Part shown: positions 1 through 61,800 of the stretch, piece after piece
How positions within the stretch are numbered: position 1 is the first letter of the stretch
How the letters are laid out: every line of letters starts with the position of its first letter
Origin: Gordius albopunctatus
Lineage: Eukaryota
NCBI GenBank assembly: GCA_964276515.1
Contig: OZ193909.1
Coordinates: forward strand, 21,452,001-21,516,000
Direction of reading: 5' to 3'
Length of the DNA stretch: 64,000 nt
Position numbers and translations under genes: made by a program
Notes under the pieces: model-generated
Database searches by the model: none
What the model was told of the DNA's origin: nothing
Seen by the model: the letters and a program-made list of their open reading frames with translations, nothing else

Positions 1-164
1 ATTCAAAACAAGGTGATAATATTTCAATATACATAATAACTATCGCTAATATTTTTGAGGCTAAAAATATGCCTAAAGCTACTCGATGCAAAATCATATT
101 GGGATACATGGGTCAAAAGAATATTGAAACTTTAATAAATTTCCTATACCCTTAAGATATATCC

Positions 165-3100: not shown

Positions 3101-3657
3101 ATACCACCCCAAAACAAATGGATTAGCTGAGAGAATGATTCGAGCGCTAAAATCAAGATACTGGGCAGCAAGAAAATCAGGGGGAGAGGAAAAATTATGC
3201 CTTCAACAAATAATTATGACATAGAGGACAGGAATACAACTCAGGCAACCACGGTTAAAGCTCTGGTGGAATTGTTGTTGGGAAGAAGAGTAAGGACAGC
3301 GTTGGACCTTATTCGACTAGATTCGAAAGAAAAGTGGAAGGAGAGATTAGCTAAACAAAAGAGCTACCATGACCGAAAAGCATCTTATAGGGAATTTAAT
3401 GTTGGAGATCCAGTATGGATTCGGAATAAATTAAAGCGGGCTGGTACAATAATGTTCGCACTGATAAAGTTATTAAAAGGAAACACGCGTATCAGTTAAA
3501 ATTTAGGATGCAATCCCAGTTTGTCGAAACAAGCGATACTAGTCGGGAAACGAATGGTGAAAAAGTTGCAGGTCCGATTACGTTAAGACGATCGACTAGA
3601 ACGTCAAAACCACCTGTACGGTTCTAAGATGAATTTCACATTTAAAATAGGGAGAAA
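165..3657 (+). mobile_element. Degenerate Ty3/Gypsy LTR retrotransposon internal region (gag-PR-RT-RH-IN); 3' LTR probably begins at 3658 (TGT)
   Basis: Fragmented ORFs: gag with CYRCGKSHAMQQC knuckle; protease LYDTGSSVSV; RT RLPFG..LLEDII; RNase H DASETGVGAVL; integrase HQGHPG..WWPGI..C..C, QIVSDSG and TPYHPKTNGLAER; C-terminal RRSTRTSKPPVRF*. Purine tract AAAATAGGGAGAAA at 3644-3657 is followed by TGT. Many stops and frameshifts. Confidence 0.93.
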
Positions 3658-3966
3658 TGTAATATATAGCGTAATTTTTAATATCAGTTTTATATATATC
3701 ATGTGGATTAAAATATATAATTAGTTTTTGATTTAAAACATATGTGAAATACTATAGTTTTTACATTTATAATTATTATGTATTGTTTAAATGATATTTA
3801 TTTTAAAATGCTGTTTTTGATATCTACCCAATTCAATATTTAAAATTACTAATTTCTATATGATAACCACTTTACCATGCATTTGCATACATCAAAATGA
3901 TGGAAAAAAGGGTACACATTTTGTGCGTTGATGAGCAGTCTATCTAGTTTATGGCTTTATGTGTAC

Positions 3967-6900
3967 CTCCTTCAGTGGTAATAATAATGGTGACTTCATC
4001 TACCACAACACTATCGCCGTTGGCTATTTTATAAGGTGATTCTTTAATAAGAATTTTCACATGAGAGGCTATGTCATCTACCGGATCTTCAAAGAAGAGC
4101 TTAAACACAATCAGGAAATAACCTTCGCTATATGTAACAACATTTAGTTATCATAAAATATCCTGACAAGTTCTACTTTTGAAAATTTAAAAGTTTTTGT
4201 TCAAGTGTGTAGGAGGCTAAATATAAAATATAATGAGTACTTGTCGTAGTCCATATTCAAACGAACATAGCTCTCGTCAAAATTTAGGGAAAATTTGTGA
4301 TCCAACTAAAATAAATAACATACATAAGAAAAACTATTTTAAAAATCCGAATTTTTTTTTAAATATAAATTGGTAATATGAATTCAAATGTCACTTTAAC
4401 ACATTTAATAAATTTTTAAGGGTGTAATTTAAGTTATACAGCAAAATAAAAAGTTACCAGCGCGCTTATGTGATTTCTTAGGAAAAATGTTTCTGAATGT
4501 GATTCATTTTGAGTCCTATTGATATTAAATCTGACGTTCAGCAAACAATTGAATTTATTTGGTGCTTTTTAAGATAAATATTGTAAACATATAATTAGGT
4601 CAAAAATAAAAATATAAGCAGTTTTAGGCATAAGTTTTTAGTTCAAAATGCTTAACAATTACTATTAAGAATAAGTAAAATATAATAATTTATACTTTTA
4701 AACCGCTTGTGAAAGATGACCTAATATTTATATTAGTTGCTGCACACTTCTAACTTAATTTAGTCTTTTAAGATAAGATGGAATTAACATAAATAATATA
4801 TCGTTGTACAATGCGTTAAATTTAATATATGGAAGCTATAAATACGTTATTTAAGTTGGCAACTTTCGACACTAATAAGAGAACTTGTCTTATAATCACT
4901 ATATGTCGTTTGCATATATGAACTCAGGTCATCAATTAGTCATTTCTTAGAAAGTTAAAAGGTTTTAATCCAATCGGCTTTAAAAAAGGCCGGCACTCCT
5001 TCCATGCTTGAACCATCCAATCCTTCTTTAGAAGGTAGAATGTGTCCCGACGGAGCTTCTATGATCCCCTGGGAGGATGGTAAGTTCCTAGCATGGGACT
5101 TTACCTGCATCAATATTTTTGCGCCAACTAATAATAATTATAACCCACTTTCTGGTGCCGAAGATCGCAAAACACTCAAATACCGAGCCATTGCTCATTC
5201 TAAGATTTTTATTCCAATAGTAGCTTCCTTTTCGGCCACTTTTGGCAAGAAAGCATTAGCTTTTTTTAAATCGATAGGAAACAGATCCCTCAAAGCTAAA
5301 TACCAGCTTTATTTTACGCCAAAAAATCGGCATTCTGATAGCTAAATATAATTACAAAACTTTTTCTGACACATGGCCCCCCGTGTTGGCTATTGACGAT
5401 TGTGATGAATAATTTTTTTTTTATTTATAATATTATTTTAAGCCCGTTTATTGTATATTTCATGTACCAATTTTAGCGAATAAAAGCATTTTAATCAAAA
5501 AAAATAGTCAAAGTTCTTATTCTTACACAATATCTCGAACGTGACATACTTGGTGTACATGTGTAAGAACCTGCAGACTTTTCTTCATTTAAGCACTTAC
5601 AGCTTGATCCTACACAATCCGTATCACGTGCTAAAGCTTTGCATTGTTTTGTGCTCCCACAGGCTTCTCCTATCTTTTTACCTAACATTCATTTTATTAA
5701 TAAAGTTTTCTTATATTATGAACTTAATCAAAACTAGATGCATTAAAGCAATGTAACTATAATATAATATATATTTTTTTCCAAAAAAGATAAACATAAA
5801 ATAATTAAATTATTAGTAAACGTATCTGCTATTTTATACCCCTCAAGGCTAGGTGTCTTATTTATTGACCCTAAAATGGCGTAATTTGATTCAGGTCATA
5901 ATTATTAAATCTCAACTCATTATTAGCAACTAGAAAGAGAGGTCGCGTAAATTTTATTAAGATTGATTACTACAAGGTAATAACAGTTGAAAATAAAAAA
6001 ACGGTCTAAAGTGTAGATTTATTGGAAAGGTATTAAACATGTATTTATTATCTAAATTAAAAATCACTAAAATTTAGTTCTAGCATAAAATTATGTTTGT
6101 TCCATGTTTTACAGCAAGTATGGATGTCATCACATCTTAGCCTTATTTCAACTTATGATTATTTGACTTAAAATATCATTCGCACGTATAGCTGAATACA
6201 GTATTAAAATCGAATATGGCCTGAATTTATAGAATAAACATAAATATTTGGGCAAATTGTACTAACCCAGCTTGCACTTCTTATCTTCTTCGTACATACC
6301 CATCTCACAGGTGCATTTGGCGTAGAGGCAAGTGTAGCCGAAGCCCAAATGACTACATCTCACTTTGGTGTCGCAATAGCCTCCTGCCTGCAGCGCTACA
6401 ATTCATAAAACTATATTTGACATTTTCGCGTTCAGTATTAAAAAAATCATTATTAAGTTATGCTGATTGTTGAAAGACTTTTTAAAAAATTTAATTACAT
6501 TAGAGTACCGGCGATCGTATAATAGAATAATATTTTCAAACGCCTTTGATTATTTAACGTAACAACAATTTCAAGGATGTTGACTAACTTTAAAAAGTTG
6601 CAAATTGTGCCAAGAGTAAAGTGAGCAAAGGTTATAGATGAAAATCCCTAAAATGTTAATTATTTTATAGGCATGTTGCTTGGTCATGTTCGTCTCTTCC
6701 CTAATGTAATATTCGTTTGCTAGTAGCTTACTAGGATGTTACTTATATTATATTACCATTTAATCTAAAATAACATTGTTTAAATAATTATAAGACTATT
6801 ACTTATATCTTTAAATAAATTGCACATTATACATACGTATAAAGCAGACTTCTCGTTTTGAACCAAAGGTACTCTTAATGCACACGCATTTGGAGTTTAT

Positions 6901-9900
6901 GGTAGATTCGCATTCAGGTACCATTATCTCTAAAAAAATAAATCTAAGTCATTTAATTGTCAATAAACTAAAGTAAATCTTTATTAAATGGTATACAAAA
7001 AATTACGACTAAGAAATATAAAAATGCGCTATAAATAAACGGATGGCATTGATCCGTGTATGGATATCGTGTTGGATTTAACGATTTCCATTGTCATCTT
7101 TTGCCTGCACTTTTTAAATATTACTACATCCATTACCGAACTAAAAACATAAAACCGGCTAGAGTAATCTTACTCGCAATTCTTTTTATAAGCTTATCAC
7201 TTAATATTGTGTTTAAGTAATGATAGATTTGTTAAAATTACAATATTTGAGTAAATCTTTGACCAATTAATGAACATTTTATTGCTAACATAGCGAAATG
7301 GGACCCAACTACTAGTTATTTAGGGTTTGGTGTATTATAATCGAGATAAGCTTATTGTAACCTGGATTTTAACTAAAACAATACATATGGAAAAAGATAA
7401 ATGTGATTGAATCGTTTATTATAGCATTATGGGTCTTAATTACTTTACTTGAAATAAATGTTAAATATCACATAGAAATAAGTCGTCTTCGGATATAAAA
7501 TTAAACAATTTAAACTGGTTTTTAATTACCCATAGCTTATAGCTCAATTGTATAAATCATGTGAAGGTTTACTTTTAACACAGCGGTTATCGTAGTAAGA
7601 ACTATCAGAATTGCACACGCAGAGCTTTTTTTCAGCTAATTCGCGACACACACTCATCTCAACCATTGCTGAACATTCTTTATCATCTGTGCATTTATCG
7701 CCTAATTTTGTGTCTTAAATGTTACATATTCACTGTGATTAAAAACAATCAAATTTTGAATGAATGGGTTTTACAATAAGAATTTTGTTTAAAACACCTA
7801 TTTTATCTCAATATCAATTCGGAGTTTAAGTTGGCCACAATGATGTGCTATGTGATCCGGCCACTAAAATGGTGCCAAAAGCAAATTAAGTCTATATAAA
7901 GCTTGGTCAGTATATTCATTCCTAAAAAAATACCCCTGATTCGTTACCTACCTTTAAAGAGGGAGCCTATATTACAGCTAAACCAAAAGTGACATCCATA
8001 TTTGCACACCTCCACTAATGGATTAAGAGAGACTTTGGGGAAACAACTTATTATAGCTTTAACTTTAACATATTTCATTTCATCAGAACGTAATTTAACT
8101 AAATTGTAGTAAAGAATGTTTTATAATACGTTTGAAACATTCGTAATCGACTCTTTTCCCGGGTTCTTTCAAATATTCGGGATCGCATTTACACATACCA
8201 TAGTGATCGATGCCGCGTTCTATTACGCACACTAAACCAGGCATACAATTACCGGCTTGGCATGGCTGCTCACCCAATTTACCTAAAATCTAACTGGCTT
8301 AAAAAACCTTTATAAAATATGAGTTTGTTGGAAAGCATTTTTATCAAGTGTCTCCGTATAAACTCAATGACTAATAAATGCTTATTTCTATCTATAAAAT
8401 ATTATTCTAATGATAGAATCATTCATCATTCTGATACAGATATTCTTGTGCTTCATAATGACGAATAGTTAACACCGTGCTTCAAAATTGGGATTGTTAT
8501 TAATAATTTTTTCAATCTATTTAAAAATTTAATGCTTAGTCTTTAAATTGAGGGTTAAAATTACCAGGAACACAGGTACGATGATTTTTTTTAGCGCAAA
8601 GCGTTAATCCTGGAGCATAATCTGTGATGCATTTGCAAATATTATCGATACAACGCATGTTGCCTCGAATGGAACATGGCCGCGTAGCGCTACAACGCTC
8701 TCCGTAGTATATATCTGAAGATGAAATAATGAAATATTATTTATAAATTTTAAGCGAAAACCGTATAAAGAGCTCAAATAGTCTTCAAATTTTCCAAGTA
8801 TATTGGGTAAATAATAACTTTGAGATCATTTTATATAATAGTTTTGTCACATTGTCTCAACAGAGCAATGCATAAAATATCTTATGTTTATAAAACAATA
8901 AGATGTTTTGATTATAATCACTATTTAATTCATACTTACCTTTGAAAATCTTGATAACGTTCCATTTAAGTAACAATAAAATTATGCATTCGTGTAAAAC
9001 ATCGATCACCTTTTATAAAGCATATGTAATTGCTTTCGATATAACAATCAGCCTTTAAAACGGTTATGGATTTGCCTGTAAAGCTTAGATATAGGCATTC
9101 ACCTACACCTTCAACCTCTAATCGACTATCATTGCTAAATAGAAATAGACACATGTTAGTATTAATGTAAAGTATTTAAATCACATTTTGGATAAAGTTA
9201 TGCATTAATGTAAAGCATTTTAACTGGATGCTATAATCTCTAAAATACGTATCAAGACTTTTCATACCAGCTAGCAATACCATAAATTAATTTACCTTTT
9301 AAAAAGTATGAATTGAAAAATATACTTTCAAATGCCAAGAAACATCCTATTGCATTTGAATTTGATGCTTTTTATATGCAATTTTAACTAAATACCAAAT
9401 CAAATCATATACTAAATGATTAGCAATGGAACCTAAGACCATTAATACTCACCTAGGATCAAACCTAGCTTCTCGACCATCCTCGTGATAATATAAATTG
9501 TTTTTGCTACGAATCCCAAACCTCCATGAATCTTGTTTATCACCCTCAAACGTTCGACCAAGAATCACCTTTAAATAATGAAATCGTCAGTTAAGCCAAC
9601 GCCACTGAACATTAAGTTATTCCATACATTCAGTATTTGTTTTTTTAATTTGGCGTCAATGGGGAGGGGGGGCAAGTTTATGCAGAAAACCCTACCAATG
9701 CCTACGCCACTGGGCATTAGAGACCTGCAAAATCGATTTTTTAAGGCCCGGCCCGAGCCCAAAATTTAAAATGGGTAAAAAATCAGGCCCGGCCCGGGAA
9801 TTTTTATAATTGCAGGAATTTAATCAAACTCAATTTTGGTAAACTTTTTAATTAAAAAACAAAACGCACATCATATAATTATAAATCGATAATGGAACTA

Positions 9901-22455: not shown

Positions 22456-23278
22456 TTATTATACTACTTAATCCATTTATTATTAATTTTAGCATAAAAT
22501 AATTACCTATATTTTAATTTATTGATAAATTACAGCATTTTGCAAAAAGTTTAGTGAATTTGAATGCATCTCCTAAGTCTACATTTTGACATAAAATGTT
22601 ATGAATGTGATGGGTTGAAAATTTTTGTGGTATGCCATGAGTTTAAGCATAGCAAGCTCCTGACAGATTCATGAGTTAATATATTACGATGTTTTTGAAT
22701 AGTCAGATACGCTTCAGAATCAATCTTCAGCAGGCACCGAGGTCGCCGGAGTGCTCAGAAAATCTCTAGCCATTGATGCTAAATCGGGATAATTATATTT
22801 TTAATCAACTAATTATATAATATATTTAATTATCTAGTCATTTTTAAAAAAACATCTTTGATATATAATAGCTGTTGAATGTAAATTTTCTAAAGTATCT
22901 AGGTTGTATGGGGAAAAGTTTTTGGGCAATTTAATTCCTTATTTACTTGAGTGGGGTAAAGGTCATAGTAATCCTTATGATGGTAACGTTTATGATGTCG
23001 TTGAAGACCGGAAGTATTGCTGTCTTACTGCTTTAAAGCACAATCTAAAATTCCCCATTTTATTTGATTCATCCTTGGATACTGTGAAATGTTTGAGCAG
23101 ATTACTCTTTTTTGAGTTGGATGATGAACTTGTTGCGCTTAAACTCATTATAGGTCTAAAATTCTTATATTTTATAATGATGCTATACAAATAAGTAATA
23201 AATACATAATTAGTTCATATACCCTAAGGGCCACTAATACTATGTTGCCTATTGAATTAGATTATAATACAAATTTTA

Positions 23279-23391
23279 AATTTGCGCGGTGCGGAACTAA
23301 TTTAGTATTAAAAGTTTCAAAATCATCATAAATAGCATTTAATATCCTAAATGTAAATCTCATAAAATAAAGGTTCTTAACTAACTTAATT
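23279..23391 (+). repeat. Left copy of 113-bp direct repeat (putative long TSD)
   Basis: Matches 27790-27902 with one mismatch seen (GCGCGGT/GCGTGGT). Confidence 0.95.
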
Positions 23392-26300
23392 TACTATAAT
23401 TAATTAATATATCCGCCATATTTTATATTATTCGCCTATTTTCTTTATCAATTATTGCTTAAAACGTTTTGGTGTATCATAATTAATATTGCGATATAAG
23501 TTGAAGTTTAATTAGAAAAACAAAAACAGACAGATAATTAGGATATTTAAAATAACTGAGATAATATTTCTTGACTTTTAAGAAGCCCTTGTTCACAAAC
23601 ACTTTATAATGTTTCCATATCACAAAAGGTAAGCAATGTATACCTTAAAAGTTTTAATATGACCTTTATTAAATCCTTTGAGCCTTTAACCAATTATGAA
23701 CATTTATTTATTTCAAACAAAAGTTTTCTTAAAATGCTGAAAAGAGAAAGTAATTTATTAAATCCTCTGTAAGACTCTTCACCTCATAACCTAAATTATC
23801 ACTATGACATTAATCAAAGCTCTCTGTCCCTCCTGCAATAGGAAAATATCCATAAACAAAAATAATTGTTTTTTATTACATGGCCCCACAACATTTAGAT
23901 GGCCTTCATCTGGTAAGAGTGTACCCACAATTATTCCTAAACCCCTCTTAACTCTTAATATTGAAGAAATAAATGAATCTTTACTCCTTATAACACCACC
24001 TGTTTTACCTCAACCCTCTAATTATTATATTAGTGACATAGAACCTAATTATACATGGCGCAATGCCTTCCTAGCTCAACCCTCTACTAATACTATAAAC
24101 AGAATCCCACGTGTAGCTAGCCCCGCAATGCAACAATTATTTATAAACCTTATCAAATTAATTTCTGATAATCCAGATAACCCTAAAGGTTGGGATACAC
24201 TATTTAATTTAGCTTCAAAGATTTTGTTTATTCTTCCAAACAAACATACCAATTTATCCAAGCATATAAAAGACGCAATTCTAAATTTCAACAACGGAAT
24301 ATCCCCTCCAACGTCAAATAAACAGACATCAAGGATAGACATATCCTTATCACAAAGAGCAAATCAAATCTCAAAAAAATCAACTCTTACAATTTAAGAG
24401 GTGCTTTGAATGTATTTTATAATAACCACACCATGGTACCTCCCAATCAAGATTCATTTAGCCGAATTAATATCTTGCACCCTTACTCAAATCATACACT
24501 TAAATACCCAAACAATATTTCTTCATTGTCATTCTCTCCCCCAGAGATTAGTGAAGCTATCAACTCATTCCCCCTAGATTCCTCTGCTGGGTCAGATGGC
24601 ATTAAACCTAACTTCTTGCAAGATGTAACTAATTTAAAGAACAATTTTTCAAACTCATTGCTTGAATCAATAACCTATCTTTGTAACTTAATTGTAAATG
24701 CCAATGTTCCTCAAGAGATCAGACCAGTCCTCTTTGGGGCACGTCTTTTAGCTTTAAAAAAATCAAACAATTCCTTAAAACCCATCGCCATTGGGAGCGT
24801 ATTTCGCCGTTTGATCTCTAAAATAATTTGCAAACGAATCAAACCCTCTTTGACCAATTCCCTTTTACCTCATCAATTAGGCTTTGTTGTGAAGGGAGGG
24901 TGTGAAGCTGCAAGCCACGCAAGTCGTATCACCACAATACAAAACCTTCATCCTGACCACTGTCTAGTAAAACTGCATTTCTCAGATGCCTTCAATCAGC
25001 TTAATAGAAACGTTTTTATGGAACATTTTTTGGAAGAATTTCCCCAATATGCAAATTATATCTTACAAAGCTACGGCTTACCATCCCTTTTAAATTTTGG
25101 CTCTTTTATAATTAAATCTGCTGAGGGCCTTCAACAAGGTGATCCCCTTGGGCCACCATTATTTTGTTGCGGGATAAAGAAACTTATTAACCTAATTAAG
25201 GAACAATGCGATCTATCATTACATGTATGGTACCTAGATGATGCGACTCTGGCGGGCATCTATGATCAGGTCGCCAAAGCCATCACCATCATTAAAGACT
25301 ATTGTTTACCTTTAAACCTAACGCTCAACGAGGCCAAATGCGAAATTTTACAACCACCTGCTTGCGACCAATACTCGATTTTAAAACCTTATTCCAACGT
25401 GGCTAAGAAAAATTTTTCCATGTTCGGTTCACCCATAGGCGGATCTCCAATTGTGAATACCTTCTTTCAGAAGCGTACCGAACATTCAGCGACGTACAGT
25501 AGTGGAAATCACCTTACACAGGTCGACTACATATTAGTGAAGCGCATAAATTTGTGGCAAGTTAATGATTGCAAGGTTATACCGGGGGAAGAAATCGCCA
25601 AACAACATCGGCCAGTTGTCCTCGATATAGCAAGAAAGATTTTTCCCGTAAGGAGAAAAGTCTACACACCAAGGACAAAGTACGAAAAGCTTAAGGATGA
25701 TCATGCAAATGAAATGTTTCACACTCGAGCAACTCCGCTCTTGAAGGTTGCAGGCTTGGAAGGCGACATTAACAAAAGGTGGGGCACCGTTGCAAATGTT
25801 CTAAAGGAAACGGCCTTACAAATATTGGGACGAACTAAGGGCGGCAGAGCTCACAAGCGTGAACTATGGTGGTGAAATGACTCGGTCAAAGAGGTTATAG
25901 AAGAAAAGAAGGCGTTGTACCTACGATGGTACAAAACGAAAAAAGGAGAAGACTACGAGGCATATCGTGAAGCGAAACGCAAAGCTAAGATAGCGGTCGC
26001 GATAGCGAAGAACAACGCTTACACCGAGATGGCAAACAAGCTCGATACCAAGGGCGGCGACATAGTCATGTATAAACTCGCAAAGATCAGGGAGAAAAAA
26101 AGTCGAGATTTCGGGACACTTAAAGTCATTAAAAGCGAAGAGGGACGAACGTTGTGCAAACCGAAGGAAGTCATCAAAAGATGGAAAGATTATTTCCAAA
26201 ATATGATGAACAAAACAAATGATAGAAGACCGCTAGAGAGGGTGGAACCGAACTCGAACTTGGTTTTACCATTTCAGGCTTATGAAATAGGAGCACAACT

Positions 26301-27789
26301 AACGAAGATGCGGAAAGGGAAAGCGCTAGGTCCCGATGATCTACCGATCGAAGCTTGGCTTGGGTGCAAAGGAGAAGGAATCGACATAATGACAGGCCTA
26401 TTTAACGCTATGCTGTATGAGAGTCGTATCCCTGACCAATGGAGGGAAAGTACGATCATACCCATATACAAAGGTAAAGGAGACGCGCAGGAATGTGGCA
26501 ACTTTAGAGGTATCAAGTTGACCTGCCACTCACTAAAACTACTAGAAAGGGTGCTAGTGAAAAGGCTCAATGACGAAGTTTGTCTCTCGCCCAATCAGTT
26601 TGGATTTGTGGCCGGTAAATCAACGATGGACCCAATCTTTGCGTTGAAGCAGACGATTGAAAAATATGGCGACATAAGAAAGAAATTACACATGGTCTTC
26701 ATCGATTTAGAAAAGGCCTACGATACGGTTCCGAGAGACTTAATATGGTGGTCCCTTAGAGCCAGAAATATACCCGAAGGATATGTTCGACTTATCAAGG
26801 AAATGTATAATGGAGCGGTTGCATCTGTTAGGACTACCGTAGGAGTAACGAAACCCTTCCAAATAATGATCGGAATACATCAAGGATCAGCGTTAAGCCC
26901 ATTCTTGTTTAATCTAATTATGGATACAATAACAAAGGACTTGCACAAGCCAGCCCCTTGGACTATGCTATATGCCAACGATATTGTCCTATGCGATGAA
27001 ACAAGAGAAGGGGTTTTTTATCAGGTGAAAAAATGGTCAGAACGTTTCTCGGAATTCGGGTTAAAGGTCAGCGAGAAGAAAACGGTTTACATGCAAACGA
27101 TGGGCGGTAGTCCGCAAATGCACAAAATTGACGGTCCAAGGTACACGGAGGTTGATAAGTTCACATATCTTGGCTCGCTATTACATCAAGAGGGAGGATG
27201 TACCGCCGAAGTCCATTCTCGGATCAAGAAAGCATGGCTCAAGTGGCGGAGCATCTCCGGTGTCATGTGTGACAAAAAGATACCAATTTGGTTGAAAAGC
27301 AAGGCGTACAAAACCATCGTGCGACCGGTCTTGCTTTACGGGAGCGAAACATGGGCTGTAACCAGCGCGGAGGAGAAACTCTTGCAAGTCACGGAAATGA
27401 GAATGGTGCGATGGAGCTTAGGCTACACCAAGCTGGATCGCATGACGAACGAATCCTTGATGACAAAGATGGGTATACAAGCGACGAAGGACTTCTTAAG
27501 AGAAAATCGACTGCGGTGGTACGGCCATGTATTAAGAAGAGACGAAGACGATGTCACACGCCGAACGCTGGAGATGGACGTGCTTGGAAGAAGAGGAAGG
27601 GGCAGACCACGTGCCACCTGGAAACGACTGGTCGAAAAGGATATGGACGTCAAACAGATGGAAATTGGCATGGCATTCACACGACTCAGATGGAAGAGGC
27701 TGCTGAAAACGTACCCCACGTCTGTGGGATTTTCAACACGATAAAGAAGAAGAAATAGACTTCACCTAATAAAGATTTAAAAAAAATTT
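23392..27789 (+). mobile_element. Chimeric non-LTR element: CRE 5' half fused to RTE 3' part
   Basis: CRE zinc finger CPSC..HGP..PSSG (23804-24397) and RT QQGDPLGP/WYLDD, then after GSPIGG (~25450) RTE APE C-terminus (NTFFQKR..QVDYILV) and RTE RT; (GAA)n tail, then AATAAA and an A-run. Confidence 0.92.
24406..27744 (+). pseudogene. Fused CRE-RT / RTE-APE-end / RTE-RT reading frame interrupted by one TGA (25873-25875)
   Basis: ORFs 24406-25875 and 25915-27744 are in the same frame. The stop replaces the third W of ELWWW (compare the 35317-37560 protein). The second RT has YAND in place of YADD. Confidence 0.85.
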
Positions 27790-27902
27790 AATTTGCGTGG
27801 TGCGGAACTAATTTAGTATTAAAAGTTTCAAAATCATCATAAATAGCATTTAATATCCTAAATGTAAATCTCATAAAATAAAGGTTCTTAACTAACTTAA
27901 TT
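27790..27902 (+). repeat. Right copy of 113-bp direct repeat
   Basis: Matches 23279-23391. Confidence 0.95.
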
Positions 27903-32214: not shown

Positions 32215-35200
32215 TTTATATTATACAATAAAGTAATTATTACTTTATCCTACATAACATCAATTCTCGAAAAGTCCACACTCATTAAAAACCCGTATAA
32301 GTTTCCACAGAAGCATCCTGATTAATCTTATAACCAGCTTTAAAAGATTAATAAATATTCTATTATTCATGCCTTTATAACAATTACAACCCAATAGAAG
32401 TGTCGGCTAAATCGAAAAATGCTTATTATGATTATCATAACATAAACTAAATGATGCATACTTAAAAAAATTCTGCATATTTCCAATTCAATGGATAGAA
32501 GAGATATTGTGTTACACTTAGAATTTTATTATCTTAATGGCATTCTTTAACATCTCATCATCACAGCATTTTGATTTATTTAACAGACAAGCAAATTGAA
32601 GCCCTCAAACATTCATCACTAAACCAATTATGAACATTCATTAACAAAAAATCCTTCATCATTATATTAAACCAACAAAAAAATACAAAGAGAAAGTGAT
32701 TGATCAAATCCTCAGTATTGATTTTACTTCCAAACAACAATCATATATCATGTGGAAGCATTAATCAACTTAACTATTATCAGAAGAAACTCCATGTTTA
32801 CAAAAACTTTATAATGTTTCCATATCACAAAATGTAAGCAATGTATACCTTACAAGTTTTAATATGACCTTTGATGAATCCTTTAAGCCTTTTCTCTCTC
32901 CAATATCATACAATTAATAACACTTTTCCCAGATACTCTTTTGTATTATTAAACTTACAAAATTCTTATAAATCAAACAGCTTTAAAATAATCCCAACTT
33001 TAATTTTAATTGTCCAACCTCATCAAGGTTTTTTTTATTCCACATATGTTAATCTCTAAACCCCTATGCCCAACTTGTAAGCGACGAATATGCCTTGATA
33101 AACATAATTGTTTCTGGATTCATGGCCCAGTGTCTTCAAGATGCCCTTCTTCGGGCAAATTACCTCCACCCTGCTTACCAATTCCACCCCTGGCTTCTAA
33201 CTTTGAAGAGGCTCCCCTATTGCCAATTTCTAGCCCCGTCATCCCCCCATCCTTACAATGCTCCCCATCAATTAATCAACCGCCTGACTCATCTTGGAGC
33301 AATTCTTTTTTAACAAAACCATTTCCTAATACTATCTCCAGAATCCCAAGAGGAGCCAGACCTTCCATCCAACAATCTCTGCTAAATATATTCACTTCCA
33401 TTATCAAAAACCCTTATAACTTAACCAATTGGGACAAACTTTTTAAATTCCCATATTATATCCTTTATGTTAGGGAACCTAATGAACATAATTTATCAAG
33501 CCTCATCAAGGAATCCCTTCTGTGTTTTAATACTGATGTTCCCATTACATGCACAAGTAAAACAAAACCCTTTCACTGGAACCCACAATTAACCAAACAG
33601 CCAAGCACATTTCAAATAAAATCCATAATTTCAACCCAAAAAGTGCCCTTAGAGCTTTTTATGATAACAACTCAATTGCCCCTTATTGCCCTGATTCTTA
33701 TAGGGAGCTTAATCAAAAACACCCAGCAGCATCATCAGCCAGTAAATACCCCACATCTCCATCATCAATAGTGCTCGAGTCTTCAGACATCCGTGAAGCC
33801 CTTAACTCCTTTCCTTTGGACTCCGCAGCCGGACTCGACGGATGGTGCCCAGTATATCTACAAGATTTACTCAACCTGAATAATTTAAATACTGAACCTC
33901 TTTTAAATTCTATTACTTCCTTTTGTAATATCATTGTTAACGGAAAATTTCCTCATGAAATCATCCCTATTTTATTCGGTGCAAAACTTATCGCCATCAA
34001 AAAACCGGATAATTCAGTTAGACCCATCGCCATTGGAAGTCTTTTTCGCCGTATAATATCAAAAACCCTCTGCAAACTCATAAAATCCTCCTTATCCGCC
34101 AAGCTCCGCCCTCATCAACTCGGCTTCGGAATTAAAGGCGGATGTGAGGCAGCCAGCCATGCTGGCCGGATCACACTCCAAAATATTCCCACCGAGTCCT
34201 GCTTCGTCAAATTAGATTTTGCCAATGCTTTTAACTGCATTCGAAGAGAAACCCTTATTAACACTTTTTTAGCTGAATTCCCACAATTCGTAAATTACAT
34301 TTTATTAAGCTATGGTTCTACAACCAAGCATCGATTCGGCGAATACGTCATTGACTCGTCCGAAGGCATCCAACAAGGAGACCCATTAGGCCCTCCTTTG
34401 TTTTGTTTAGACATTCATAATTTAGTCGAGGCTATATCATCTCAGTGTATTCTGGATTTAAATGTTTGGTATCTCGACGACGCCACCCTTTGTGGCCGCC
34501 CGGAGGAGATCAGTAAAGCTATACAAATTATCAACAATTTTAAACCCACTCTGAATCTTACATTCTTCTTCTTCTTTATCAGTTATTTGGTCCCACATTG
34601 GTGGGGTTTGTTTTGATGAGTCTCTTCCATCTTGACCGGGTTAGTGCCATGTCTTGACGAATCTCTTTAGTTTCCATAACTTTATCGACTTGCCTTTTCC
34701 ACGTGACACGGGGTCGTCCTCTTCCTCTCTTCCCCGGTATTTTGATGTCTAGCACTTTTCGATTTACGTCATCCGGGTCCCTTCTTAATATATGCCCATA
34801 CCACCTTAGCCGATTTTCGTTAATCATGTCCGCCATAGGTTGAATACCCATTTTTGTCATGAGAAAGTCATTCGTCATATGGTCGAGCTTAGTATACCCC
34901 AAGCTCCACCGTATCATTCTCATCTCCGTGGCTTGTAATAGCTTTCCTTCCGTGGTGTTTAATGCCCATGTTTCACTTCCATAGAGTAACACCGGTCTTA
35001 CGATGGATTTGTAAGCTTTGCTCTTCAACCATATTGGCATTTTCTTGTCGCACATTACACCGGATATACTTCGCCATTTAAGCCATCCTTTTTGAATCCG
35101 GGCATTGATTTCAGTTGCGCAACCTCCCTCTTGATGTAGCATAGAGCCGAGGTAATTAAACCTGTCTACTTTTGGGTACTTTAGGTGGTCATTCAGCGAT

Positions 35201-38200
35201 GGGGTGCTTGTACCGTTCATTTCCATGTATACCGTTTTTCGATCGTTGACCTTTCAACCATATCCAGCTAAGCGCTTTGACCACTTTTCTGCTTCTTCGA
35301 ATACCTTCTCCCTTGTTTACTCGCATAGTACTATATCATCGGCATATAGCATACACCATGGCGATGGCTTTTGAAAGTCCCTCGTTATCGTGTCTATAAT
35401 TATATTAAATAAAAAGGGACTTAAAGCAGAGCCTTGATGTAATCCAATATTAACCCGAAAAGGTTTAGAGTCTCGAACTGTCGTCCTAACGCAAAAGTTT
35501 GAGGCTTCATAGATATTTTTCATAAGCCGTATATATGCGTCAGGGATATTTTGTTTCCTCAGGCACCACCATATTAAATCGCGGGAGACCGTGTCATAAG
35601 CTTTCTCCAAGTCGATAAAAACCATATGTAGGTCTTTCCTCTTTTCACCATACTTATCCATCATTTGTCTTAGGGCGAAGATTGGGTCGATTGTGGATTT
35701 GCAGGCCACGAATCCGAATTGATTAGCCGATAATTCCACCTCGTTTTTCAGCCTTGTTACTAAGATCCTTTCCAAAAGCTTCAATGAGTGGCAAGTTAGC
35801 TTGATACTTCTGTAATTGCCGCAGTCCTGAGGGTCTCCTTTCCCTTTGAATAAGGGTATAATCGTGCTTGCTCTCCATTGATTAGGGATTCGCTCTTCTA
35901 CCAATATCTTGTTAAGGAGGTTCGTCATGGTGGTGACTCCTTCTTCACGACATCCGAGCAATGATTCCATAGGTATTCCATCTGGGCCATTTGCTTTTCC
36001 TTTTTGCATCTTGTTAATTTGCGTCCTAACTTCATCCTTCTGAAAGAGTTCGACCATACTTATATTTGGCTCAATTTCGGGAAGGGAATCCTTGTCATTT
36101 GCAATATTCATAAGTTTCTTAAAATATCCTTTCCACCTTTCCATCACTTCCTTCGGCTTGAATAAGGTTTGTCCCTTCTCGCTTTTGACTATTTTAAGAA
36201 CTCCGACATCTCGACTTTTCTTCTCCCTTATCTTGGCCAATTTGTACATAAGCCTATCGCCCCCTTTATGATCCAGTTTGTTTGCCATCTCGGTGTACGC
36301 AGCATTCTTCGCTTTTGCAACGGCCTTTTTTGCGGCCCTCTTTGCGTCCCTGTACTCTTGATAATCCTCCGACTTTTTTGATTTATGCCACCGTCTATAT
36401 AGATTTTTCTTTATTTCGATGAAATCTTTAACCGATTGATCCCACCACCATAGTTCCCTATTCATAGCTTTTCCTCCTTTGGTCTGTCCTAGAACACGAA
36501 TCGCTGTTTCCTTAATGTCCTTAGATAGCGTTTCCCAATCTTCGTCTACGTCCCTTTGCAACTTCCTTGCACCCAAGAGTGAGGAGGCTTTTTGATGGTA
36601 TTCTTCGTTCGTCGACGTATTCTTTAGCCTTTCGTATCGAATTCGAGGTTCATATACCTTTCTTCTTTCGGGAAATACTCTTCTGTCAAGATCCATAACA
36701 AGGGGACGATGTTTCCTGGCGATTTCTTCTCCCGGTATTACTTTGCAATCTTTGATACTCCATAAGTTATTTCGCCGTATAAGCAAATAATCGATTTGAC
36801 TAAAATGCTTCCCACTTCTATAGGTCACAATATGATCTTCGCGCTTTTGAAAATAGATGTTAACAATCGCCATGTCATATGCTTGGGATACTTGGAGAAG
36901 TTTTTCCCCTTCTTTGTTCTTCAGACCATACTCATAGCCTCCATGATTGCGTTCATACCCGAGGCGATCTTTCCCTACGTGAGCGTTGAATTCGGCCCCA
37001 ATAATTAGTTTTTCTTCCTGTCGGATTCCTTGTATTTCCTTTTCCAATGATTCGAAGAATATGTCTTTCTCTGATTCCGAACACCCAATTTGGGGAGCAT
37101 ACGCGCACATAACGGTTAGGAGGCCCCCTTGATCCGCAATCTTCACCCACATTAGCCTGTCAGAACAACGTTTGACTTCCACCACCTTGTACTTGAACGA
37201 TTCGCTTAGAACGATACCGACCCCGTTTCTACGATTTGGTGACCCACTGTAGAAAAGCTTGTATCCTTCTCCTAATTCCCGAGCTTTCGATCCGTTCCAC
37301 CTCGTCTCTTGTAGGCAGGCGATGTGTACCTTTCTTCTTTTTAACATCTGTGCGAGCTCGATGCTCTTCCTCGTCAACGTTCCCACATTCCAGCACGTAA
37401 TTCGCATTCTTTCCACAACTAGTTTCCTTAACCGCCTTCGTTGTGAGTTGGGCAGTAACCCTAGTGTATTTTTCACATTGCACGGGCGGGGTATGCAGTG
37501 CGCGTCGTTTGTGGAGGACGCCCTAGCCTTTTCTTGTAAAATCTCGTTTGAAACTATCATAAATTTTGGAGTTGATTTTTATAACCGGTTTCCGACCTGA
37601 CGCCAACCCTCCACTTTTTGCACACGGACTTGGGACCTTCGTAGGTAGTGTTACTCTGAATCTTACATTACACTCGAAAAAATGTGAAATCTTTCAGGCC
37701 CCCAACACTATTGACTTTCCAATTTTTAAACCTTTTTTAGTTTTAGAGAAGGAAAACATATCCCTTTTGGGATCACCCATTGGCGGTGAAAAATCTCTCT
37801 TAAATTTTCTTCATAAGAACCTTGAAATTTTAAAATCGAAAACGGAACTTTTAAAATGCTTGCCAGCGCATCACTCATTTTACATAATCAAAAACTAGCT
37901 CATCTGGCGCATTTTTACACCTAGACGTTTTAAAGTCGTACGAAGGCTTTTTAAAAACGTTATTACAAAAAATTTTAAATTTTAAATTTAATACTAACAA
38001 TTGGATTCAAGCATCCCTCCCAACCAAATCTGGAGGATTAGGAATTCGCCCTCCCGGCAGCATATCGCTAGCCGCTTTTATTTCCTCTTTTAAGTCGGTC
38101 CAAGACTTAATTTTTAATCTCATAAAACATGATTCCGACTCCCTGCTAACTCAAGCCTTGGAGCTTTGGAATTTGAATGTCACACCCGAGACCATCCAAC

Positions 38201-39085
38201 CTCAAAGTACGAGACAAAAGGATTGGGATTCTGGACTAGTATCGCGCTCCGTTGATTACCTCTTATCGAGCAGCGATGATAGCCAGCATTACAACCTTAT
38301 GTCCCTCGCTTTTGACCGTTCCGGTCACGAGTGGCTTGAAGCCTATCCCAGCAAACTTTTGGGAATGCTGCTTGAAGACTTTGAGCTATCATATTCCATA
38401 GCTTTAAGGTTGGGGATTAGTTACAGCAGAGAATTCAACTGTCAAAACTGCCTTACCGTTGTAGAGGAATATGCTAGGCACCCTCTACACTGCCTAGCAA
38501 ACAAATATAAATACGTTAGGCACACTAAAGCTAATCTATTTATTCAAGCTGCCCTTAAAAAGGCCAAAATCCCCTCAATCCTTGAGCCGTCCGATCCCTC
38601 CCTTGAAGGTAGGATGCGCCCTGACGGCTCTTCTCTAGTCCCCTGGCAAAATGGCCTATCCCTCAAATGGGATTTTACTTGTATTGACCTTTTTGCACCT
38701 TCCCATTTTAATTACGACCCTATCGCTATAGAAGAAGGGCATAAAACTACAAAGTATTCTGCCCTTTTGGCATCCAATATTTTTATCCCTGTCGTTGCCA
38801 CGTGCTCCGGTTCCTTTGGCAAACAGGCAATGGGGTTTTTTAAAGAAATCGGAAAACGCACTCCGAAATCTAAAATTTCTGCGTCCTTTTTACTCAGACA
38901 ACAACTAGGGATTCTTGTTGCACGATACAACTTTAAATCCTTTGCCGACTCATGGCCCATTTTAGAAGAGAATGATATAAATCTTTGTATTTAACCAATA
39001 TGTCTTTATTTTTCTATTTCGCTTATTAATGTAACTTTGTTTCTTGAAAATAAACTTTTTAACAAAAAAAGAAGAAAAAAATTCC
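32215..39085 (+). mobile_element. Near full-length CRE-clade retrotransposon (ZnF-RT-RLE), frameshifted and interrupted by an RTE
   Basis: CPTC..HGP..CPSSG; RPIAIG, KLDFANAFN, IQQGDPLGP, WYLDD; GSPIGG; GGLGI; CQNC..HPLHC..RH; RPDG..WDFT..EGHKTTKY; AATAAA and an A-rich tail at 39049-39081. 5' boundary approximate. Confidence 0.93.
34563..37652 (-). mobile_element. Full-length RTE LINE, few lesions
   Basis: ORF 35317-37560 (APE + RT, LYADDIV) and 34579-35226; (GAA)n tail; 15-bp TSD ACTCTGAATCTTACA (34548-34562, 37653-37667). The CRE frame TLNLT/LHSKKC is restored on removal. Confidence 0.96.
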
Positions 39086-55800: not shown

Positions 55801-58800
55801 ACACGTAATTTAACATATGGCATGATCAGTCTATCTAGTCTATGCTTATAATATAAGATTGTTTAATTAGCATGATGTATTTTTTGTGGTCACGATGCGC
55901 CAAAGGTAATAAAAGTACAAATATTTCTTTTTTTGATCTTTTAATTCAAATTGTTTTATCAAAGGTAATATAAGTTTGCTTCAAATTTGAATTTGTTGAA
56001 GCTGTTTATCCATAAAAGTGACATTTTAGTCATTTTGCTCATAATTTTATAACAATTTTTTAATGGCAGGTCTTAACAGTCATTACACCTAAATTTTATG
56101 ATTAATGCATATGAATTCTGAAACTTTATTTAATTTGGCGTCATAAATTGATGTCGAAATGCTATATTTATTTAAAATATTGCATGATTTTAGTTGCTTA
56201 TTTAAAAGCACATGATATTTTGAAATATTTAATGTGATACACATATTTACTCGGTCTTTTTTAACTTGGTCACATGGACTGAATTTATTACGAAACCATA
56301 AACAAACTTTTTAATAATCTTAGAGGGTCGGCTGAAAAGTCCACGTAAATTTATCCGTGTTAAAAGAAATATTTAAAATGAATTCAAAAAAAGTGTTTAT
56401 TATTGTGTAAAACATCTATAAATAAAAAGTCAATTCTGCCCAACTGGTCATCATTGAAGAAACTTTCTCGTGAAGGGGGGTCCGCTGGATTGTGCTCCGT
56501 GCTGACCCACTCCAGATTCTGTTTGATACGCAGCATGTGGTCCAAGCCCATAGTATTGCAGATCTTAGTGAAAGCAAGTTCCAGGTGAGGAGCATGCGCA
56601 GATCCCTTTTTTACAATATAGAAGGCGGTCCTGGAGTCCGTAAGTATCTTTGGGGTGATGTGTGGAGTGTTGACCAGTGCCCAGATGTAAGCAAGGGGGA
56701 TGGCTATCAGCTCCAGGAGGTTAATTGTCGTAATGAGGCTGTGGTAGCCAAAGATGGCTAACGCGTCCCCTTTGTCAATCGAGAGGATGGAACCTCTATA
56801 GAAAAGGCCAATGTGGGACGTGGAAGCGTCGCCGGCTGTGAAGCCATTTGGAGAGTGTTTCATGGAGAAAGGGGTTGAGAGGTGGTTCTGTATTATGAGG
56901 ATCTTCCTTGTGAGCCATGTTTTGTCAAAGTCGATGGGGTCATTGGCAAGGAAGATATTGTAGGCTGGGGATAAATATTTTGACCATCCTGTCAACATGT
57001 ATACGAGTGGGTCAAGATAGCCAGACATGTTTGTGTGACCAAAGGATTAGGTCTTGTACCTGTGTCCATGAAGTGGTTGATGATCTGTATAGCTGCGTCT
57101 ATCTTGGAGACAAACTTAGCGTTTACTTTCAATGTGTGGTTTTCCAGATTAACATGGATACCCAAGTAATCCAGAATCTTCTTGGGTTCTAGGGACGACT
57201 TGTTCCGGTTGATGGTCAGGTTCTAACATTTCGCCATGTATAGGAACCTACGCGTGTCTGCTTTGACCAAAGTCTCCGAACGTCCGTAGATTAGAATGTC
57301 GTCTAAATAGACGTTGTATTTTGATTTTGTGACTGATTTCTTACAAAGATCCAACATAATCTGTTGTAGGACGTAGGGCGAGAAACTAGCCCCCATCGGG
57401 AGCACTTTGTAAGAATATTTTTGCCTTCTGTATCGGAATCCGAAGAATTTCGATGATTCCGCGGCCAATGGAATAGAGAAAAAGGCTGATTTCATATCGA
57501 TTTTAGTCATGAAGAGGGAATCCGATAACGAAGAAGCGATGAGGGGGATTGATTTAATAGTAAAGGGATATTTGATAAAATTCTTGGAGACTTGCGATAA
57601 ATCCGCTATGAGCCTGGGGGATCCGTCACTCTTTGGAATAAAATACATTGGAGATGGGATGCCCAGCGGATTTCTTCTAACTAGGTTGCTGAGGATGACC
57701 TCGTCCACCAAGGGTTTGTGTTCTCTGGGGATCGCTTTAACATAGCGTGGCAAATGATAACGCCCATTATTGGCCACGATCGCGGTCCTGGAGAGGCGAG
57801 GTTTAAACCCTCTTTTGGCTACGTTGTAGGTAAACTTGGATTGCATGTAGTGAGGTTTCAGGAGCGAAGTGCGAATAGATAGAGGATGTGTGAAATTTGC
57901 GAAGGATGATAAGGGGTGGGAGGGGAATGATGGGATATTAGACGGTTCGCTAATGATAGGTGGTTTTGGATGTGCCCCGGCACACTTGTACGTTCCGGTA
58001 TCGGGGCGTTGGGAGGATGAATCGGTTCCTCCAACTCCGGGCCATCGTCGGGGTTAACACCACTGCCGAGGGTCGCCGATACCATCCTTACGTGACTACG
58101 TTCGCTCCGTCCTAGACGGAGCCGGCCCTTTTTGGTAAGTGCCCTTCTTCCTCGGAGCATTGTATTTAGGAGGCGGACGAAAAAGCTGCACCAGTTCGGT
58201 GTACTGACCCATGCCCATTTTTTCCGCCCAGTCCTTTGATTTACCCGTCACGGCTTGCCAGCCATAATACGATGCCATAGCGATCGTAGGAACCCGATCG
58301 GACAGTTTGTCGATCGTCTTGTCGTAATCGTTGATGGAATCTCCTAAGCTGAGTAGAAACTCAGCTTCGTGTTTTTGGTGGGCCGGCATGGAATAGTTAG
58401 TTTCGATTGCTTCCTTAAGCCCTTTAAGGCGTAGCTTTAAAATCTCCCCATTCGAGCTAGGGACGTTTGCTACCTTTGCCCTTTCTGTCGCTAGTAGAGC
58501 CTCCAGTTCAGCACGGGTCATCGTGACCGATTCTGAAGGTAGGGCAGGAGCCCAATGTGGCCGATCTTCCACATTGACCGTTTCTCCACTGCCACTCAAC
58601 AGCCTGCTTTCGATTTTTGCGTCCATTTCGGCTAGCCTGCTCAAGATAAGCTTGATAGCTGGGTCTGAGACTGTGGCGTTACCTCCAGGGTTGGCGACTA
58701 TCGAGTCCTTATTAGGGGAAGCCATGTTGGTTGAGCTGTTGAGTTGTGTAGTAGATTTCGAGAAGAAATTACTTAATGGAATATCGTCTACACTTTTGGA

Positions 58801-61800
58801 AGGGACTTTTCTGGGCATAAAGAATTTCGGGAAAAGGGGGGTAAAAAATTTTATATCAGCGAGCGACAGAGGTTCCGACTGAGTGAGATAAACGATAAAG
58901 TGTGTAGAAAATAGGTTGTGAATTATAGTAAATTTCTTAGGAAGATCTACGGTATGAAGAATTCTCCAAATTTCAAAATCGAAGGACATCCGTAACTTAA
59001 AATGATGTAGTTGGTGTATTGAAATAGCCTGATAAAATCATTAATGAAAGCTGTGCGGCGTATGCTATTGAAAGCATTGTTAAAATCTAGTTTGAAGGAG
59101 GTGTTCCACGGCTAAGCTTGCGGCATGGGTAGCCATCTCGCATCCTCCTTTGACCCCAAAGCCTAGTTGATACGGAATTAAAGTAGGGGTCAATATGGGT
59201 TTGATCGCCGAACGAATTAATTTAGAAATAATTCTTTGAAAGACACCGCCGATAGCGATAGGCCTGGCTGAATTGTCGGCCTACCTTATAGCTAAAAGCT
59301 TAGCTCCAAAGACTATGGGCGTTATTTCTTTAGGTATACACCCATTGACTAAGAGGTTACAAAATTTGGTGAGTAAGTCTAGTAAAATGGAGGAGTTATT
59401 ATTATAAATTCTTATAAGATCTTTTAAAAAATGGTTATATGCCGTCGAGACTAACTGCAGAATCCATAAAAGAATATGATGGTATCTCAAATGTCTGATG
59501 ACTTAAAAGCAATATCTGAAGGTTGCGAGGGCGATAGGTAAGTAGATAGACCCTGGAGATGCTTGAGATCAATTTCTTCATATAATTTTTGTGAAGGACT
59601 CAAAAATGAATTGTCTTCTTTAAGGTATCTCATAGCACTTTTTATGTTGAATGAATAATTTTTTAGAGATTATATTCCCTTTTTGTTTGGGGGTTAATAT
59701 TTGGGATTCCTTTCTATCCATGTTATATGCTGGAGGGCTGTTTTGACTGTCAAAATTTAAAACTGATTGTTTAATATTATAAGTAATATTTGCTTCCTTG
59801 TCTTGAGGAATAGATAAAATATAAAAAGAGAATTTAAATAATTTCTTCCAATAGGACAGGTTTAGAGGGAGAGAAATAATATTGTTAAGTAAGTTTATTA
59901 AATACTGTTGCATGCACGCCCGGGCCCCCCTGGTCGGTGGGAATGCTTGAGATAAAAATAACTTGGTCACATGGAATTTGCGAAACGAGCTAACTCAGAA
60001 CTTAATAATATTAATTGTTTCCATAATAAAACTTTTTAATAATCTTAGAGGGTCGGCTGAAAAATGAACGTAAATTTATTATAAGAATCAAGTGCTTGGC
60101 CTAATCGGGTAACTGTAGTAAATTCTAATTTTCTGGCGGGCTCCCGAGCCTATTTATACAATGTATTATTTTGTTTTCGCATATTAATTTGTGACTTTTT
60201 TATTTGGTTGTATAATGTTTATTAAACCTAGACACGAATTTTGAAAAAAAAATATTTTAAGATACATTTTACCACCTTCCTGATTCAAATCCTAGTTATG
60301 TCTATAAAAAGGAATTAAATATTCTTTTAGACTTTTAATTGCTTGAATATATTTAGTTATTTTACATGAAATGCCATTAGTTAATGTCTAGTTTTTAATA
60401 GTTATTAAATTTCAGATCATATAAATTCGCCAATAACAGGAAAATATATTATTTCGAGCCAGGCAGTTAGAGCATCTCAAATAATTTGTCGGGCATGACT
60501 AAGTCATTTACAACTTTGATGGGTGCCGGTGGGCAATAATTAAACCAAGTCTTATCTCTTATTCACTTCATCGCCCTGGCATCCTTATATTTATCTATTA
60601 TATGCAAAGCTAACAAATTATCGTTAATTTGTTGTAACTTATATATGCGTTTGATATACACGTCTTACTCATTTGCTATTATTGTATCGCTTCGAAACCT
60701 GAAGTCAATAAAGATTTCCCCTGGCATAACAAAAACTTATGAATATAAATTTTCATTTGTTTCGTTACTATAAGGCTCTACAATTATAATTAATTAAGTA
60801 ATGATGTTATATCATATTTATATCAGAGACCAGATTTGCCCGGCCCACTGCCTGAACCTCCCCGCCCGGCCCATGGGCTTGGCCGGGCCGGGAAACTGTC
60901 GTAATTTTAACTTTCGGGCGGCCCCGGGCGGGCACTATAACAAGATTTAAGCCATTCGGGGTCAATTTTGTTTTTAAAATAATGTATTATATTGTTATTG
61001 TGTATATTTTGACACTTTTTAATTTGTTTTCATAATGTTTGTTAATCCTAGTTCTCATTAAAAAAATCATAAATTATGATAAAATTTTTAAAATGATATT
61101 AGTGCTAAAAATCTTAAAACACACCATTTCGGGTCTGGGAGTTTGGGCAGCTCTGAATAATTCGGGCATTGCCGGGCGGACACATAGAAGGGTTTGGGCG
61201 GGCAAATTAATTATAAAATCGGGCCAGACCGGGTTCGGGCAGAAAAATTCTAACAAATCTGACCTCTGATTTATATACACTAAACCTGTAATAACAACAA
61301 AATGCAACGTATTGATGCATTAAATAATGGAATCTATTAATAATATAGTAAAAAACTACAACGAAACTTGTGAATATGACTTTGATTGCGATAGCCCTCA
61401 AGTATGTTATGGAGGAGTCTGCTCGTGTGGAGATCGATACTACTATATGCAAGGCGAATGCCGTTTAAGTAATAAACACTTTTTTTATAGTTTTCTTGTA
61501 GCAACGTATTAAATCTTATTGATGCTCAACAATATATTGTAAAGCAATTAACTTAACTAAGATAATTAATTGTGCTAAAAATTTTATTAAATGAATGATA
61601 CAATATTTTATGTCAAAACTAAAAGGGTATAGTCTAACCAACCAACAAATGAAAAAGGATCAATTTTAGTGGCAGGATGCAATAATAATTTGATTCCATT
61701 TAATTATATGAGACTTTCATTCAATTCTTCACATTATAAATTTTAAAGTTTATTTTAAATAAATATCTATTAAACAAAATTGCATATCAATTAGACCTTA

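Follow-up and report, generated by a model that had tools for sequence, protein, structure and literature searches.

A compact element with a reverse transcriptase and RNase H, probably of HEART grade, in the genome of the horsehair worm Gordius albopunctatus

Is a capsid-sized first open reading frame (ORF1) beside a reverse transcriptase (RT) plus an RNase H, with no integrase, the mark of a fossil hepadnavirus, of a truncated retrotransposon or of a compact retroelement in its own right? This question is raised by a stretch of 64,000 nt of Gordius albopunctatus (assembly GCA_964276515.1, contig OZ193909.1, positions 21,452,001 to 21,516,000; hereafter the window, whose own coordinates are used throughout). 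A first-pass annotation, made from the letters alone, had placed on its minus strand (56355-58950) an endogenous copy of a HEART-like or proto-hepadnavirus/nackednavirus lineage, possibly intermediate between DIRS and hepadnaviruses. The window copy displays a two-gene layout and several breaks, and neither a tyrosine recombinase (YR) nor an integrase nor a terminal protein (TP) was found in it. It has decayed from a compact repeat element made of ORF1 and RT-RNase H, and we lean, by a modest degree, towards placing it in a naturally integrase-less lineage of HEART grade shared with horsehair worms. The lineage is a real compact retroelement and probably new to the literature; in the literature searched, which did not cover Repbase, no description of such an element in Nematomorpha was found.

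Anatomy of the window copy and its family

The element spans ~2.6 kb and is richer in GC (0.463) than its flanks (0.31 and 0.32), as first described; all its parts are read from the minus strand. Behind a presumed 5′ untranslated region (5′ UTR; 58819-58950), which adjoins a broken long interspersed element (LINE) at ~58950, lies ORF1 (58096-58818), an uninterrupted frame of 240 aa with a putative Gag or capsid role. The RT (56992-58053) is of the YLDD type, and its frame 58053-57226 matches the Pfam family RVT_1 at E 7e-17. The connection and RNase H (56384-57046; DAS...E...D...NPADPPSR), recognized by homology to the Gordionus protein P0050 and by tblastn, occupy a different frame from the RT, which terminates 27 codons past the NPADPPSR motif. 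Identity to P0050 amounts to 43% in the RT and 35% in the RNase H region (E 2e-25), and the catalytic D-E-D-D of the RNase H is invariant in an alignment of 20 sequences. The assignment as RT-RNase H is confirmed, while the continuous frame of ~590 codons ascribed to it is broken in the polymerase (pol) by an in-frame stop at 57225-57223 and by a frameshift near 57.1 kb.

ORF1 had also been said to overlap pol. This holds for an acidic, Pro-rich frame (58247-57858, with an ATG at 58160) that overlaps the 3′ end of ORF1 and is likely the N-terminus of pol, located before another frameshift which the N-terminal part of pol probably carries. It does not hold for the RT frame itself, which shares the phase of ORF1 and is separated from it by two stops.

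At the other end, GC content falls steeply no more than ~40 nt beyond the final RNase H motif, and the AT-rich 3′ end (56355-56430) contains neither a YR frame nor poly(A). An AATAAA hexamer cited as a terminal signal is present, yet at 56401-56396 and inside the final RNase H codons; we dropped it as evidence, since the window contains 1.8 such hexamers per kb and strand and no poly(A) follows.

The reported lack of a YR, integrase or protease was borne out. Across all six frames of the window, a profile built from 14 YR proteins found no YR (best E 6.2, against E 3e-79 for the control). Nine retroelement proteins, some of them with integrase, protease or methylase domains, matched only the RT-RNase H region between 50001 and 64000, where no integrase, protease or methylase match was obtained near the element. 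In eight YR-bearing loci, the YR frame opens -205 to +16 nt from the last RNase H motif. Inside the element there are no inverted terminal repeats or internal complementary regions and no split direct repeats.

Further copies were recovered from contigs of two sequencing runs of one study. Depth over the element reaches 1,047-7,652, compared with ~180 in the flanks (run X1), contig depth not being copy number. Contig pieces of 450-600 nt, diverged by 14-19% from the element, span ORF1, the RT and the linker, and other copies also cover 58841-58889 in the presumed 5′ UTR. The in-frame stop at 57225-57223 is private to the window copy when compared with the other contigs. The element is a multicopy, diverged family and the window copy is a decayed member; among the contig ends and joints listed, the termini of other copies were not seen.

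Relatives, trees and hepadnaviral hallmarks

A phmmer search of 1.84 billion representatives yielded, among the matches listed, three close relatives, all from the horsehair worm Gordionus sp. and all annotated as uncharacterized (XP_065317776.1, XP_065315139.1 and CAK9296138.1; 43-52% RT identity, 197-218 bits), while the next match to a single RT scored ~102 bits. Two of the three reach the RNase H and continue for 11 and 90 aa after it. A profile search added two more Gordionus proteins, and Pfam detected no YR or methylase in the three close and three further Gordionus proteins. The Gordionus proteins resemble the element in both domains and form a common clade with it (100/100); they differ in their 11-90-aa tails, in the lack of a detected ORF1 homologue and in being known as protein records.

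We scanned 79 of the 150 listed phmmer matches with Pfam: 17 contain a Dam domain, two a phage-integrase domain and six the hepadnaviral RNase H family. These six, together with nine similar proteins, constitute what we call the compact set, consisting of RT and RNase H and ending soon after an N.AD..SR motif. Most have a disordered N-terminus, and their low-complexity N-termini resemble the overlapping frame of the element. A homologue search among longer proteins returned weak gypsy, retroviral and DIRS matches only, and viral contigs held no relatives of P0050 or P0087. Scored against the window, group profiles ranked compact first for the RT (190, followed by DIRS1 with 166, VIPER/Ngaro-like with 59 and hepadnaviral with 35) and for the RNase H (55, 35, 23 and 13, in the same order).

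A set of metagenomic proteins that carry RT and RNase H only (P0062, P0064, P0070, P0073, P0085, P0087, P0088, P0101, P0107, P0124, P0137, P0196 and P0204) is diverse, most of them with a DAT motif, and many are located on contigs of 1.4-4 kb, which may be small complete replicons. Separately, a metagenome contig of 1,185 nt (L060) displays a hepadnavirus-like RNase H end with a 31-aa tail and an overlapping frame at -132.

For phylogenetic placement, references were fetched computationally and given group labels by us, resulting in 62 rows and 203 columns for the RT (mixture model) and 42 rows and 136 columns for the RNase H. P0209 was left out as poorly aligned, the 42-row set also omits Bel/Pao and near-duplicates, and, among the members of the VIPER/Ngaro-like and fungal sets, L045, L046, L052 and L066 alone have a confirmed YR. 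In the RT tree, the window and Gordionus sequences form one clade (100/100) within a 21-row clade that includes hepadnaviruses and ten compact proteins (94/66, unstarred) and lies outside DIRS1, with P0087 and P0204 as sisters to the hepadnaviruses (95/92). In the RNase H tree, the window lineage, compact, hepadnaviral, VIPER/Ngaro-like and fungal rows are split from DIRS1 and gypsy (99.7/100), and the window lineage is sister to the compact and hepadnaviral rows (88/90). The approximately unbiased (AU) test on the RNase H rejected a DIRS1 placement (p 0.020) and rejected neither a VIPER/Ngaro-like placement (p 0.31) nor a position as sister to hepadnaviruses (p 0.17). The proposed place between DIRS and hepadnaviruses fits loosely: the trees support, without settling it, a position that excludes DIRS1 and falls within the RNase H group to which hepadnaviruses belong. 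Several compact proteins are closer to hepadnaviruses than the element is.

The hepadnaviral affinity had been argued from three motifs, RLIADLSQVSK, PMGASFSPYVL and NPADPPSR, all of which are present. They do not discriminate, because PMG occurs in 4 of 15 DIRS1-like RTs and NPAD.PSR accompanies a YR in some loci. The latter pattern picked 19 hepadnaviruses among viral contigs and at least 119 metagenome loci, 80 of which have full flanks; among the 50 of these with at least 900 nt downstream, 12 are followed by a YR (eight above the Pfam cut-off) and five are Bel/Pao-like. Consequently, we rejected PMG and NPAD.PSR as hepadnavirus-specific, as both occur in YR retrotransposons. By contrast, the RT and RNase H markers YMDD, VxKN, PNL, SLD and DAT are complete in 8/8 hepadnaviruses, and none of the five is found in the window or in two Gordionus rows.

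TP and DR1/DR2 were likewise not found. A TP profile from nine hepadnaviruses (without the TP of proto-nackednaviruses, PnNV; the positive control was a member of the training set) gave a best E of 20 in three frames of 58300-57601, a stretch that covers the part proposed for a TP check, and Pfam DNA_pol_viral_N had no match in the element. Terminal direct repeats of the DR1/DR2 type are absent: four repeats of at least 10 nt compare with 3.2 in shuffles, and none is located at the ends. A weak stem-bulge-stem hairpin of the element lies just inside the start of ORF1, the place of epsilon in hepadnaviruses, on the minus strand (58800-58731; -9.7 kcal/mol, z -3.5, one of 42 windows scanned); Rfam had no match in the element.

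ORF1 compared with hepadnaviral cores

ORF1 is composed of a disordered N-terminal part, a helical middle, a Pro-rich turn and a basic tail. No homologue was obtained in Pfam families, PDB sequences or 658 candidates, those from Gordionus relatives included, and the Atlas gave no usable match. The suggested inspection of its fold did not confirm a core: single-sequence AlphaFold2 models were of low confidence (pLDDT 46 and 60), Foldseek returned no match at E 0.001 or better, and a VIA structure search found generic helical bundles (best Z 6.8 and 4.9), with no hepadnaviral core among the 50 listed rows for each model.

Alignment with published cores (PMC12691608, supplement 3) showed ordered look-alikes of three core motifs at aa ~10-19, ~181-190 and ~212-222. 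DDIPLSNFF (aa 11-19) stands at the place of the DFFP motif, which is described for hepadnaviral cores in a passage of PMC10033635, A..YGW..V resembles the helix-4b motif of PnNV and RPPPKY.NAP the hand region, followed by the basic tail. Patterns written after the alignment had been viewed gave 0 and 1 matches when run over decoys totalling 393,054 residues. Support from unbiased matrices, derived from vertebrate viruses, is weak: the ordered triple was reached by 17/500 shuffles and 49/800 real decoys, with the middle look-alike scoring at background. A hepadnaviral core HMM and hhalign were negative for ORF1; moreover, both conserved core tryptophans are absent and the last two motifs are spaced 12 aa wider. 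True homology of ORF1 to the hepadnavirus core is therefore a lead of low probability. The same region (aa 173-190) fits R...I.LA...GW..V, presumably a DIRS-type gag motif of some marine-invertebrate DIRS-like ORF1s. This motif was not found in the fetched YR proteins, 142 loci were without a match, and a single chance match came from a phage.

Rival readings, the locus and mobilization

The strongest competitor, which we consider possible yet clearly the less probable account, is a VIPER/Ngaro-like tyrosine-recombinase retrotransposon that no longer has its YR and terminal repeats, either in the window copy or in its subfamily; its cDNA, circular or linear, would be inserted by a YR acting in cis or in trans. 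VIPER/TATE and Ngaro share with the element a gag-like ORF followed by RT-RNase H, as set out for Ngaro ORF1-ORF2 in passages of PMC8547959, and they fall into the same RNase H group; a passage of PMC6681497 likewise groups the VIPER RNase H with hepadnaviruses. A combined tree that makes the lineage sister to VIPER/Ngaro-like loci (89/82), the tolerance of that placement in the RNase H AU test, the YR-bearing loci that end in NPAD.PSR, the putative DIRS-type gag motif that ORF1 resembles at aa 173-190 and a rearranged locus with a LINE cut at both ends all speak for such a loss. Against it, the AT-rich tail follows directly after the RNase H with no remnant of a YR, the VIPER/Ngaro-like RT profile scores low (59 bits), the putative gag motif was not found in the fetched YR proteins and loci, and the copy lacks split direct repeats, the repeat that flanks it being single-copy at two inner positions and hence no split repeat of the family.

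A 3′-truncated DIRS1/PAT element, the case that had been named as refuting a hepadnaviral link, is very unlikely. Most of the distant matches are DIRS1-like (17 of the 79 scanned contain a Dam domain), the DIRS1 RT profile is near the best with 166 bits and the combined AU test tolerates the placement (p 0.10); yet the lineage falls outside DIRS1 in all three maximum-likelihood trees, the RNase H test rejects it, the N.AD..SR end that is one residue shorter is found in 0/15 DIRS1-like proteins and no methylase lies downstream. The element is probably not DIRS1. Least credible, at slim odds, is a genome of true Blubervirales, a proto-nackednavirus or another, that became endogenous and had been copied by protein priming inside a capsid: size, ordered core-motif look-alikes, an ORF1 whose end overlaps the beginning of pol, the missing integrase, the NPAD.PSR end and the tolerated sister position to hepadnaviruses are outweighed by the failure to find a TP, for which there is little space, or DR1/DR2, by a YLDD motif without VxKN, PNL, SLD or DAT, set against PnNV RTs that carry V(N)KN, SLD and YMDD in part of a published supplement, by compact proteins nearer to hepadnaviruses and by a linear, multicopy genomic family, and the element is not a member of Blubervirales.

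For the compact, naturally integrase-less lineage that we favour, we count the missing YR, the Gordionus proteins, the ranking of the group profiles, the RT and RNase H trees, the rejection of DIRS1 on the RNase H, the early fall in GC where YR-bearing loci open their YR frame, the raised depth with diverged contigs and a second CRE-headed composite in the window. Several points count against it. The combined RT and RNase H tree draws it to VIPER/Ngaro-like rows, and the combined AU test, run with fast constrained searches, rejects no placement, DIRS1 included. Its RNase H contains DAS and INLLEL like YR elements, while DAT is found in 8/8 hepadnaviruses and 14/15 compact proteins. Furthermore, the compact set is known from protein records without DNA context, and the natural absence of a YR is read from one copy and protein records. 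The tree rows include no published sequences of HEART elements, nackednaviruses or PnNV; for PnNV and nackednaviruses, this is because a search of the viral contigs with a PnNV motif had no match. HEART retroelements, as portrayed in parts of PMC12691608, PMC11551314 and PMC12440569, resemble the element as invertebrate genomic RT elements near Blubervirales whose RT is without hepadnaviral insertions. Tick HEART RTs, in the sequences given in part of these sources and compared outside the trees, differ by PFG and YIDN/HLDN and are by eye nearer to P0087 and P0204.

The surroundings of the element form a composite insertion. Upstream of it lies a piece of ~1 kb from the interior of a CRE-like non-LTR retrotransposon, now decayed (58951-59958, minus strand); tblastx and tblastn identified it through the CRE-like copies of the window at 24191-25113 and at 33430-34352. 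It is context outside the element and is cut at both ends; LINE homology ends at 58953 and the cut at ~58950 precedes the RT active site. A direct duplication of ~110-130 nt (upstream copy 60087-59959, downstream copy 56368-56262; 59-nt core 92% identical) encloses the element and the LINE piece. No long terminal repeat (LTR) or inverted repeat had been seen by the first-pass annotation, which is correct for the element and overlooks this duplication. We tried it as an LTR and rejected it: it is locus-specific and not a family LTR, because depth at two inner positions of the upstream copy is single-copy (170-179, run X1).

A second composite in the window is laid out like the one holding the element. 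A duplication of 133 nt with 95.5% identity (23259-23391 / 27773-27902) surrounds a CRE-like 5′ part and an RTE 3′ part, the latter ending with an AAG tail, AATAAA and A8. Both composites may have been made by LINE-type insertion or break repair. Elsewhere, 32784-39070 contains a near-complete CRE-like LINE of the RLE type with an RTE-type insertion nested at ~34565-37654 and flanked by a 17-nt duplication. A short repeat at 60425-61292 reaches a depth of up to ~250,000 in X1 and is probably a MITE; an older, diverged copy lies at 60089-60231 beside the upstream duplication. At 156-3499, frames of a decayed gypsy-type LTR retrotransposon (gag, protease and RT) are visible.

For the compact lineage, we propose a cycle in which a single ~2.5-kb RNA would end in the AT-rich tail and be packed into a particle formed by ORF1. 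Pol would be translated from the overlapping frame, and cDNA would be made without protein priming. Entry of the cDNA or RNA into the chromosome might be passive, by way of the repair of double-strand breaks or with LINE machinery that is borrowed; the window copy likely arrived within a composite headed by a LINE and bounded by a long target duplication, as in the second composite. Parts of PMC12440569 treat the mobilization of HEART elements as unresolved, and a published model, as given in part of PMC12691608, derives Blubervirales from an escaped HEART retroelement.

With an intact first ORF beside RT-RNase H, a multicopy family and relatives in a chromosome-level genome, two questions become testable: do such elements ever carry a recombinase, and does the first ORF adopt a hepadnaviral core fold? 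If full copies possess a YR, the element is only a divergent YR retrotransposon. If ORF1 were a true core homologue, the element would be a capsid-encoding retroelement of animal genomes without TP or integrase; it would represent a stage with a hepadnaviral capsid before protein priming, and would link this capsid with the gag found in YR-type retroelements.

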